In this document: positions 33,359-34,247 of the stretch, piece after piece
Layout: the number at the start of each line of letters is the position of its first letter
How positions within the stretch are numbered: the stretch's first letter is position 1
DNA from: a virus
Virus record (IMG/VR): IMGVR_UViG_3300036792_000176
Span: 23,998 to 87,997 of that record
Length of the DNA stretch: 64,000 nucleotides
Direction: 5' to 3' (one strand)
Notes under the pieces: model-generated
The model's database searches: none
Told to the model about the DNA's origin: nothing
What the model saw: the letters and a program-made list of their open reading frames with translations, nothing else
Made by a program: the position numbers and the translations under genes

Positions 33359-34228
33359 TTGCCTAAGTTCAGGGTTCCCGACGAGGACATGGACATAAAA
33401 GAGCTCGAGGAGGCCGAGTTCGACGAGGAGGGCCAGTTTAAGCCCTACACGGGCAAGCAGCCGCCCAAGGGCACGATCCTGCGAGGGATCATCAAGAAAG
33501 CCTGGATGACCGAGACCAACGCTGGCAAGCTGATGCTCAAGGTGATCTTCGAGGCCACCGAGGAATCCGGCGAGTACGAGGGTCTGGGCATCTGGGACAA
33601 CATCGCGTTCCAGCCCAACACGAAGTTCAGGTGGAAGCCGTTCCTGGACGCGACGGGGCTGACGCTCAGGGGCATTAAGACTCAGATGTACCTTGAGGAC
33701 GATGACGACAACATCGGCTCTCCGATCATCAGGATCGGCAAGGACTGGGTCGTCGGCGAAGACAGCACCGCGGTCATGGTCGTCACAAGGCGCACGCGCC
33801 GTGACGGCGAGTGGGAGTCCGAGGTCGACTCCTGGCTTGAGTACGAGGCCCCTGAGGGTGACGACGAAGATGACGAGGAGGAGGAAGAGGAGGAGCTTGA
33901 GGAAGAGCTCGATGACGAGGAAGAAGAGGATGATGAGGAGGACGAGGACGAGGACGAGGACGAGGACGAGGAAGTAGAGGACGAGGCTGAGGAAGAAGAG
34001 GAAGAGGACGAAGAGGAAGAGGAAACTGCCCCTCCCGTCAAGCCCGCTAAACGGGCCGTTACGCGGCCGGTAGCCGCTAAAGCCGCTACCCCTAAGCCGA
34101 CGGCCGCTAGGCCGGTAGCTCGGAGCTCCGCCCCCGCCCCGAAGGCCGCGAAAGCCGCGAAAGCTAGCGGTAGGCCGGTAGCGCGCGGTAAGGTTAAGCG
34201 AGGCGGCTCGGAAGAGCCTCCGTTCTAA
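33359..34228 (+). CDS. SSB-like (DUF669-type) protein with acidic tract and basic Ala/Lys/Arg tail
   Basis: position after the recombinase; beta-rich N-domain; ends EEPPF. Confidence 0.65.
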   Translation: MPKFRVPDEDMDIKELEEAEFDEEGQFKPYTGKQPPKGTILRGIIKKAWMTETNAGKLMLKVIFEATEESGEYEGLGIWDNIAFQPNTKFRWKPFLDATGLTLRGIKTQMYLEDDDDNIGSPIIRIGKDWVVGEDSTAVMVVTRRTRRDGEWESEVDSWLEYEAPEGDDEDDEEEEEEELEEELDDEEEEDDEEDEDEDEDEDEEVEDEAEEEEEEDEEEEETAPPVKPAKRAVTRPVAAKAATPKPTAARPVARSSAPAPKAAKAAKASGRPVARGKVKRGGSEEPPF

Positions 34229-34247
34229 CAATCCCCCTCAAATAGAC

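Follow-up and report, generated by a model that had tools for sequence, protein, structure and literature searches.

The 3' end of a phage gene for a putative single-stranded DNA-binding protein (SSB) is spelled in 190 bp without one CA or TG dinucleotide. The genome analyzed is an 87,997-bp IMG/VR virus record (G000; CheckV 93% complete); the window, a 64-kb stretch of that record, supplies the positions used below unless genome positions are named. The gene lies on the plus strand and the CA/TG-free stretch, 34040-34229, covers the end of its basic tail. An earlier note on this DNA had singled out the stretch as the clearest of many such islands and had proposed that the phage modifies its own DNA at TG/CA. 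Very probably, the stretch is real, is selected at the DNA level and belongs to a conserved family of control-region islands. A TG-context mark that these islands escape is the explanation we favor, tentatively, for the missing dinucleotides.

A recoded tail in an SSB-like gene

The predicted protein runs from an OB-fold through an Asp/Glu linker of about 60 residues and a basic Ala/Lys/Pro/Arg tail to a C-terminal EEPPF. Residues 1-164 were modeled as an OB domain with a predicted local distance difference test score (pLDDT) of 79.4, and the best Foldseek match of the model was the SSB-like PrgE (E 6.7e-5, probability 1.0), followed by bacterial SSBs (E 0.03-0.1). The protein has no Pfam SSB match, and a PDB sequence search with its N-domain returned nothing meaningful. 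E. coli SSB likewise has a disordered linker that ends in an acidic-hydrophobic tip, DDDIPF. The same architecture and a (D/E)(D/E)PPF end were found in 10 of 10 homologues from related uncultured phages; thus the reading frame holds as far as its stop codon, and the island is translated sequence. With its modeled OB fold and disordered acidic-hydrophobic tip, the product is an SSB-like protein. PHROGs assigns it to phrog_9460, labeled 'methyltransferase' (E 4.3e-8), a label that looks wrong given the predicted OB fold.

The CA at 34039-40 and the next CA or TG, at 34229-30, are separated by a gap of 190, the longest in the window. The base composition of the stretch (A38 C66 G64 T22) would yield about 20.5, close to the 20 or so of the earlier note. 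Overall, CA and TG occur in the window at 0.130 per base, for which a geometric model gives an expected maximum gap of about 65. In first-order Markov simulations of the window (n = 100), the maximum gap averaged 59 and never exceeded 80; only four contained any gap of at least 76, versus ten such gaps in the window itself. The largest gap among 300 shuffles inside 200-bp blocks, which keep base composition, was 105. Runs of the observed length were therefore absent from the shuffled controls.

The nine other runs named in the earlier note are all present, as gaps of 84, 86, 89, 108 and 78 at 3061, 5680, 8647, 11043 and 12195, and of 58, 98, 90 and 82 at 12283, 17661, 45738 and 45848. In the whole genome, 12 gaps are at least 70 long where 0.8 would be expected, which bears out the claim that the stretch belongs to a genome-wide set. 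The absence of gaps between 59 and 75 indicates that the long gaps form a separate class. Outside the islands, CA and TG occur at normal frequency (observed/expected 1.05 and 1.08). No other dinucleotide class in the window has a comparable excess of long gaps; AT and TA have three each, in low-complexity coding DNA. Two gaps, 25110-25186 and 33934-33988, consist simply of GAG/GAC acidic repeats and were set aside as no part of the phenomenon.

A stretch of this kind could arise by chance or as a by-product of the Ala/Lys/Pro/Arg composition of the tail, which lacks His, Gln, Cys, Trp and Met, the residues whose codons force CA or TG. Synonymous resampling of the 62 codons at 34040-34225 by phage usage predicts 15.9 +/- 3.1 CA/TG, and with the protein fixed the exact probability of finding none is 1.1e-9. 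Codon choice in the tail is thus skewed away from CA/TG, as the earlier note had suspected. Its comparison also holds: the similar Ala/Lys/Pro tail at 25400-25660 (gene 24434-25663) uses these dinucleotides freely, with 28 against 25.9 expected.

Homologous tails carry the argument further. The last 62 codons of ten tails, the window's included, were scored for observed versus expected CA/TG. Five are depleted, all with P < 0.01: the window (0 versus 16.4), L004 (4 versus 17.9), L001 (6 versus 18.1), L012 (6 versus 16.2) and L005 (8 versus 15.4). The other five, from L008, L013, L010, L011 and L014, are normal, with 14, 16, 25, 18 and 15 CA/TG, respectively. The same kind of protein tail can be spelled with or without CA/TG, and the even split points to an overlay at the DNA level rather than to protein composition. 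Collectively, the codon null, the homologous tails and the simulations, none of which reached a gap of 190, refute chance and low complexity as causes, and we give this explanation practically no credence.

Compared with CA/TG-free synonymous versions of itself, the tail has an excess of TA (13 versus 7.5, P = 0.006), GGTAG (4 versus 0.8) and CCGGTA (3 versus 0.63). These words may be selected motifs, or by-products of transitions, which remove CA/TG at the least cost. The CA/TG-free tails of relatives contain (K/R)-P-V-A-R-G with Val spelled GTA, making CCGGTAGC (window 34173-34190), whereas ordinary tails read K-P-A-R-G and have no Val. The DNA motif may have cost the protein one extra residue.

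Features of the island and its surroundings

The island contains GGCCGGTAGC three times, at intervals of 45 and 63 bp, and no other exact copy occurs in the window (Table 1). Between the second and third copies is the palindrome GGAGCTCC, of which the window has 7 where 1.86 are expected, with 4 of the 7 inside islands. Its extended form at 34122, GAGCTCCGCCCC, equals box B of the island at 11119. The L005 tail carries the same CCGGTAGCTCGGAGCTCCGCC, and the L004 tail carries CCGTACGTGCGAGCTCC, the variant of box B found in the post-DnaE island. On these features the stretch seems to be one more of the family's islands, superimposed on coding DNA whose product would tolerate recoding.

Twenty bases past the stop codon begins a stem-loop (z = -3.8), matched in folding by 0 of 200 shuffles, which is terminator- or attenuator-like. 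A ribosome-binding site follows, and then the first gene of a block for nucleotide metabolism and DnaE.

Two other identities for the island were tried and rejected. The two halves of the SSB tail fold much like shuffles (z = -0.63 and -0.49), and an Rfam scan of the window returned two tRNA genes only; a structured RNA element was rejected on these grounds. A replication origin finds no support in the cumulative GC skew of the genome, whose extremes fall at 28.5 and 69.8 kb, whereas the island lies at 58 kb.

Insulation from host expression would predict DNA that offers no ATG, GTG or TTG start on either strand and no match to a -35 TTGACA. Consistent with this idea, the island has no NTG on either strand, TAG and TAA are frequent in islands and no sigma-70-like site turned up when 33000-35000 was scanned for promoters. 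Yet CTG and CAG, neither of them a start codon, are missing just as completely as ATG, GTG and TTG. Selection of this kind is expected to be weak rather than absolute across 190 bp, the island itself is translated, and other intergenic regions are normal in CA/TG. We therefore regard insulation as highly improbable.

A family of CA/TG-free islands

The islands are discrete elements of 76-190 bp and 67% G+C, about ten in the genome. Relative to the genome, they have no CA/TG, 0.36x AT, about 0.6x GA/TC, 2.15x TA and 1.66x CG. Among T contexts, TG is missing, TC stands at 0.59x, TT at 0.83x and TA at 2.15x. One 123-bp genome stretch does without TG, TC, CA and GA altogether. Non-coding DNA overall is not depleted (0.115 versus 0.132 CA/TG per base), and a general property of non-coding DNA was rejected on that count.

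Islands sit between gene modules: in the early promoter region (genome 17280-17458), in five plus-strand spacers, at one convergent and one divergent junction, at the replication/lysin border and in one late-gene spacer. The SSB tail is the one clear coding case. The earlier note had placed the islands mostly at promoters, which holds in part. They occupy intergenic module borders; three lie just upstream of a recurring TATACY -10-like box, one contains such a box, and the others are at a convergent junction, at a divergent junction or in a late-gene spacer.

Motif content divides the islands into classes. Four share box A, GCTCCGAAATAAG, and box B, GAGCTCC, about 65 nt further on. The pair at 45739..45930 has box A GCTCCGAAATAAG and box B CGAGCTCC and ends at a TATACT box. 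Three islands carry GTACCCTAGCC repeats, and two of the three are just upstream of TGCATACGG-TA-GATATACC; the early island has a palindrome adjoining GCTATACT. The differences between classes indicate that the ban is not a by-product of a single binding site. When ten island pieces were folded, only 11040-11165 stood out (z = -4.7); the others mostly had z above -1, and two reached -1.4 and -1.5. The palindrome GAGCTC is avoided overall (0.64 of expectation) yet concentrated in islands.

Table 1. Positions of the island, its relatives in the genome and neighboring genes (window coordinates unless marked genome).
Feature	Position	Strand	Remarks
SSB-like protein gene	33359..34228	+	289 amino acids (aa); coding score 101; OB-fold, linker, basic tail, tip
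CA/TG-free island	34040..34229		62 sense codons of the basic tail and the stop codon
GGCCGGTAGC, copy 1	34065..34074	+	codons Arg-Pro-Val-Ala
GGCCGGTAGC, copy 2	34110..34119	+	Arg-Pro-Val-Ala
GGCCGGTAGC, copy 3	34173..34182	+	Arg-Pro-Val-Ala
GGAGCTCC palindrome	34122..34129		box of 'bipartite' islands
Stem-loop	34248..34282	+	16 bp, no U tract; -35.5 kcal/mol
Intergenic 'bipartite' island	3062..3145		GGAGCTCCGAAATAAG, 65-nt spacer, GGAGCTCC
Island with GTACCCTAGCC-type repeats	5681..5766		directly upstream of TGCATACGGTAGGATATACC (-10-like box)
Island, class of 5681-5766	8648..8736		upstream of TGCATACGGGTACGATATACC
Bipartite island	11044..11151		convergent junction; perfect 24-bp palindrome; unusually stable fold
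Two islands (78, 58 bp)	12196..12341		divergent region upstream of prim-pol/helicase gene
Intergenic island	17662..17759		98 bp
Two islands (90, 82 bp)	45739..45930		border of last plus-strand replication genes and lysin
CA-free plus-strand runs	genome G000:C1:17280-18565 (L003 1280-2565)	+	5.4-6.7 kb before window start
Two tRNA genes	28380-28454, 30126-30200	+	anticodon CAT in both; Rfam
PD-(D/E)XK nuclease	31001-31999		upstream of SSB-like gene
AAA_24/Sak4-like ATPase	32048-32956		upstream of SSB-like gene, after the nuclease
Next gene, unknown	34295..34618	+	107 aa; first of the nucleotide-metabolism and DnaE block
FAD/NAD-fold protein	34615-35445		downstream block
Weak HIT match	35387-35755		downstream block
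ThyX-like gene	35739-36656	+	PF02511, E 1.2e-34
DEDD-type exonuclease	37661-38317		downstream block
S-adenosylmethionine (SAM) methyltransferase	38356-39036	+	Methyltransf_11 type, phrog_6636
PHP domain	39987-40925		downstream block
DnaE	41601-43979		downstream block
Rpf-like/LysM lysin	46070-46912

The recurring motifs raise a purely architectural explanation, in which a DNA-binding protein of the phage, or a nucleoprotein complex, assembles on the islands and no chemical mark is involved. Stiff GC-rich DNA would be hinged at TA, and CA/TG would be excluded for reasons of mechanics or shape; candidate partners are a regulator of CCGGTA, GTACCCTAGCC or GGAGCTCC, a ParB-like protein, or a protein with a histone-like tail. 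CCGGTA is enriched beyond the islands' own dinucleotides (19 versus 4.1 expected, in 8 of 12 islands) and recurs at spacings of 42, 53, 54 and 63 bp in other islands, besides the three 10-bp repeats of the SSB tail. A ParB-like gene is present at 19960-20811, TA-TA distances peak weakly at 6, 11 and 22 bp, and the excess of TA, GGTAG and CCGGTA persists even among CA/TG-free synonymous tails. Still, motif sets differ between islands while the ban is common to all. The TA periodicity is weak, and the TA excess itself may reflect C-to-T and G-to-A transitions. In the E. coli phage ECML-117 (Wifcevirus, JX128258), moreover, a similar purge spans whole small genes, about 1.3 kb. Two further objections come from the drift of the spacers and from the early genes, described below.

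Conservation among related phages

Two complete relatives have CA/TG gaps of at least 60: 13 in G001 (94.6 kb; DnaE 88% identical) and 11 in G003 (95.5 kb; DnaE 71% identical), mostly intergenic or in the SSB tail. Orthologous flanking genes allowed 8 of 10 island loci to be placed in G001, and at 7 of these 8 an island lies within about 200 bp. In G003, three island loci have a syntenic island. Islands syntenic to those at 45739..45930 were found in L004, L005, L006, L007 and L009. The spacer downstream of DnaE keeps its CA/TG-free tract in six phages (alignment A1), although the only parts that align are the two boxes, A and B, and a promoter-like segment further downstream. As far as the alignments indicate, what is conserved is the CA/TG-free property and its place, not the letters. 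Such free drift of spacers that still avoid CA/TG argues against the architectural explanation.

On the DnaE tree the trait is patchy. It is strong in the four-member clade of the window, present in L007, L009 and L013, weak in L012 and absent from L008, L010, L014 and L011. A methyltransferase gene (38356-39036) shows a related distribution: it occurs in the strong-island relatives L004, L005 and L001/L006 and is absent from L008 and L010-L014, though both flanking genes are kept. As the agent behind the islands it makes a weak candidate, which we did not use, as its four genomes form one clade of the DnaE tree (100/97) and amount to a single event. In the sister group L007/L009/L013, islands measure 86, 86 and 72 bp, and L013 has no methyltransferase at the syntenic place. 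The L007, L009, L012, L010 and L008 records, fragments that are 24-64% complete, contain no methyltransferase match.

Just after the islands at the lysin border, a segment at 45930-46070 is conserved in five or six phages, with syntenic copies in L004, L005, L007 and L009. Its shared letters are ATAACG..TAGGTAACG..(TATACT)..GAGTAGCGTCA..CGCTGCAGT..GGCGCGT.CCTTCT.AGAATGGA. Possible identities are a promoter for late or lysis genes, leader included, and a small RNA.

Wider searches gave little. Megablast of 30000-38000 against the phage collection returned a single 57-bp match, and a search with the prim-pol protein returned distant actinophage helicases only.

Loss of CA from one strand of the early genes

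About 40 kb from the SSB-like gene, a CA-free tract of 465 bp on the plus strand begins exactly at the early island and is followed by two more, of 192 and 319 bp; TG remains common in this region. Within this region, the sense strand of gene 17761-18156 has 8 CA versus 21.8 expected (z = -4.4) and that of gene 18301-18507 has 0 versus 8.6 (z = -3.7). Only these first two early genes are short of sense-strand CA; all others are normal. Because the two strands share every base-pair step, none can be avoided on one strand alone, and the target must be read either single-stranded or as a strand-specific base context. The earlier note had offered DNA mechanics, the avoidance of flexible CA steps, as the alternative to modification, and on this one-stranded loss over hundreds of bases it fails. 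Overall, we consider the architectural explanation unlikely.

Strand specificity would be accounted for directly if the phage were escaping a reader of 5'-CA-3' in single strands, such as an endoribonuclease or a deaminase, ADP-ribosyltransferase or nickase directed at single-stranded DNA. Early transcripts, or an exposed non-template strand, would then avoid CA, and in islands both strands would be exposed or transcribed, wherever promoters melt, hairpins extrude or transcription converges or diverges. Sense-strand CA is lost from the 5' leader and from the first two early genes, which agrees with such a reader, as does the position of several islands at convergent or divergent junctions. The SSB tail, however, lies within a long plus-strand operon and yet has no TG for 229 bp. 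Eight of 10 island pieces, this tail included, fold no better than shuffles, and arm symmetry cannot explain the missing TG. UA is enriched, which speaks against a cleaver at pyrimidine-A, and all genes other than the first two have normal CA counts. We know of no nuclease with plain CA specificity. A single-strand CA reader accordingly seems to us improbable.

Three direct repeats of about 45 bp that contain GGTAGCCATAATG lie just upstream of the early island, at genome 17040-17280 (L003 1040-1280); the repeat recurs at genome 25767 and 36681. GGTAGCCATA has four copies in the genome, all non-coding. These repeats may be iterons or operators. A gene at window 1916-2935 (+; 339 aa), which has no Pfam or PHROG match, shows the opposite bias, with TG at 33 versus 51.8 (z = -4.0) and CA at 93 versus 73.3 (z = +4.0).

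Candidate explanation: control DNA free of a TG mark

The explanation we favor combines the control-region setting of the islands with a mark on the surrounding DNA. The island in the SSB-like gene would be cis-acting double-stranded control DNA overlying the 3' end of the gene, and a phage regulator, RNA polymerase or replication factors would read it and its relatives as duplex DNA. The disordered protein tail would tolerate the recoding, much as the lambda origin is accommodated within gene O. The ban on CA/TG would be selected for its own sake, these being the sites where some agent acts on phage DNA, and the proposed agent is a post-replicative hypermodification of thymine, or of another base, in TG context. 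Islands would thereby stay chemically plain and readable by DNA-binding proteins. In the first early genes, loss of sense-strand CA would leave the template strand of the incoming DNA without modified T for the host polymerase.

Precedents for such a mark come from four reports. The Pbunaviruses F8 and 14-1 are reported to have hypermodified T at TG, in F8 without known modification genes, a point its authors stress (PMC12191111). In Acinetobacter phage SH-Ab 15599, TG is almost fully modified, TC less, and TT and TA little (PMC13458397). Thymine is modified in TG or TC contexts in M6, ViI and phiW-14 (PMC6449724; PMC8989533), and the earlier note's reading of that literature holds. The order of T contexts in the islands mirrors the preference of 15599 (PMC13458397) and the TG/TC rule (PMC6449724).

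Several results weigh against a TG mark. No ThyA-type synthase or dUMP hydroxymethylase (PF00303) was found in the 87,997-bp, 93%-complete genome, where the sole thymidylate-synthase-like gene is of ThyX type. Neither the 5-hydroxymethyldeoxyuridine (5-hmdU) DNA kinase PF18748 nor the amino-acid:DNA transferase/aGPT-Pplase PF18724 was found in any of five records (G000, G001, G003, F8 and ECML-117), while M6 as positive control matched both (E 1.1e-19 and 2.3e-48, respectively). The genome also gave no match to TGT/DpdA (PF01702), with the control matched in 14 of 14 genomes, and none to a C5 (PF00145) or N6/N4 (PF01555) DNA methylase. A DPPY/NPPY-type motif is a sign of a DNA methylase; none was seen in the sequence of the sole methyltransferase (38356-39036), which is of small-molecule type. 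When the 140 predicted proteins were all compared by tblastn with M6 (50 kb), none gave a match. The missing enzymes are weak evidence because F8, too, has neither kinase nor transferase and yet is reported to modify its DNA.

Further points on the same side concern the islands themselves. None of three phages with experimentally inferred TG/TC-context modification has such islands: the top CA/TG gap is 79 in M6 (50 of 59 kb; expected maximum 70) and 36 in phiW-14 (50 of 157 kb; expected 51), and the whole F8 genome has gaps of 88, 81 and 77 (expected 69), that of 88 in a low-complexity gene. This argues against TG modification as such requiring islands. The one-strand pattern was not seen near the orthologous early gene in G001. 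The islands are control elements in a putative sense, by position, conservation and motifs. The only public run with this DNA is the source soil metagenome, which is kept as contigs, and no RNA run is listed.

A palindrome signature was used as an indirect readout of protection, by pooling observed/expected counts of six-base palindromes with and without CA/TG. In the calibration phages F8, M6 and phiW-14, palindromes with CA/TG are less avoided than those without (0.97 versus 0.73, p = 0.016; 0.83 versus 0.37, p < 0.0001; and 0.96 versus 0.68, p = 0.0009, respectively), as expected if TG-containing sites are protected. G000 points in the same direction without reaching significance (0.96 versus 0.85, p = 0.22), as do G001 (0.99 versus 0.87, p = 0.19) and G003 (0.94 versus 0.87, p = 0.26), with 0.26 for the pooled genomes.

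The earlier proposal that the phage modifies its DNA at TG/CA thus gains from the strand-specific early ban and the matching T-context gradient, and loses from the lack of a known enzyme, the missing islands in M6, phiW-14 and F8 and a palindrome signature short of significance. The evidence is circumstantial, and we advance only tentatively the view that CA/TG-free islands escape a TG-context mark on the phage's own DNA. What credence remains belongs to other or unknown causes of the ban.

A possible source of the mark lies in the downstream block. The motif of ThyX is RHR. An alignment of ThyX-like proteins has RQR at this position in the clade of the window and RTR in F8, ECML-117 and distant relatives. 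Homologues occur in L001, L004-L006, L008, L010-L019, L021, L023, F8 and ECML-117, always with a DnaE-type polymerase. The pathway could start at this non-canonical ThyX-like enzyme (RQR/RTR) and feed a private DnaE polymerase. That the soil clade and unrelated phages such as the Wifceviruses both mark DNA at TG by a pathway without known hypermodification enzymes, and keep 'mark-free islands' as a viral equivalent of CpG islands wherever proteins have to read the DNA, is a broader and more doubtful proposition.

Comparison with known systems

One close parallel is ECML-117, in which a CA/TG-poor block at about 7000-8500 (L028) covers three small genes with 0.036-0.060 CA/TG per base, versus a genome mean of 0.144, and gaps of 118, 78 and 61 bp. 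Like the phage studied here, it combines CA/TG-poor DNA with ThyX and DnaE; BLAST links the two only through ThyX, PHP and DnaE. It differs in having one block of whole genes rather than about ten 76-190-bp control-region islands and a gene tail. Its palindrome contrast (0.94 with CA/TG versus 0.71 without, p = 0.002), together with the block, predicts TG-context modification in a cultivable phage.

The TG-hypermodified phages F8, 14-1, 15599, M6, ViI and phiW-14 share with this genome the dinucleotide concerned and the grading TG > TC > TT/TA. F8 adds a ThyX-like protein without RHR, a DnaE-type polymerase and the lack of canonical hypermodification enzymes. They differ in having no islands in the three tested and a clear palindrome signature, and in that modification here is a candidate only. 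The accessible parts of the four reports (PMC12191111, PMC13458397, PMC8989533 and PMC6449724) do not mention unmodified islands.

Phages under restriction shed 4-8-bp sites genome-wide. Here, similarly, a short word is selected out, down to synonymous sites, but the word is a 2-bp step and it is banned only inside short islands. Site avoidance of the usual kind is also seen in G000, G001, G003 and L005, where GC-rich palindromes are rare: GGCGCC at 0.21, ACGCGT at 0.26, CCGCGG at 0.42, GCCGGC at 0.53 and AGGCCT at 0.54 of expectation. This avoidance and the Rpf-like/LysM lysin both point to a high-G+C Gram-positive host, probably an actinobacterium.

Vertebrate CpG islands are regulatory islands that escape a DNA mark and lack the mutational decay of the methylated dinucleotide. 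The islands described here are likewise short, putatively regulatory and distinct in dinucleotide content, and CG-rich. They differ in that the target dinucleotide itself is removed by selection, the genome shows no decay and the mark is only hypothesized. The lambda origin resembles the SSB tail in placing repeated short sites over the flexible-linker part of a replication gene; in contrast, GC skew gives the island no support as an origin and its 10-bp repeats are shorter than typical iterons.

Implications

In the literature searches made for this analysis, we found no description of CA/TG-free islands in phage genomes. What appears new is a ban confined to short control elements and imposed on translated sequence. 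If the islands do escape a mark, sequence alone would reveal phages with context-specific hypermodification, including by unknown enzymes, and islands would flag promoters, operators or origins in genomes of mostly unknown genes. Bulky base modification would then carry a regulatory cost that is paid by rewriting sequence, a cost relevant to biotechnology that employs modified phages or modified DNA. Should the cause lie elsewhere, for example in a one-strand CA reader, the islands would point to an undescribed pressure early in infection that would recur in unrelated phages, among them those of soil bacteria and E. coli. Either way, a protein tail recoded at a probability near 1e-9 for the sake of a DNA signal is a clean natural case of overlapping codes.

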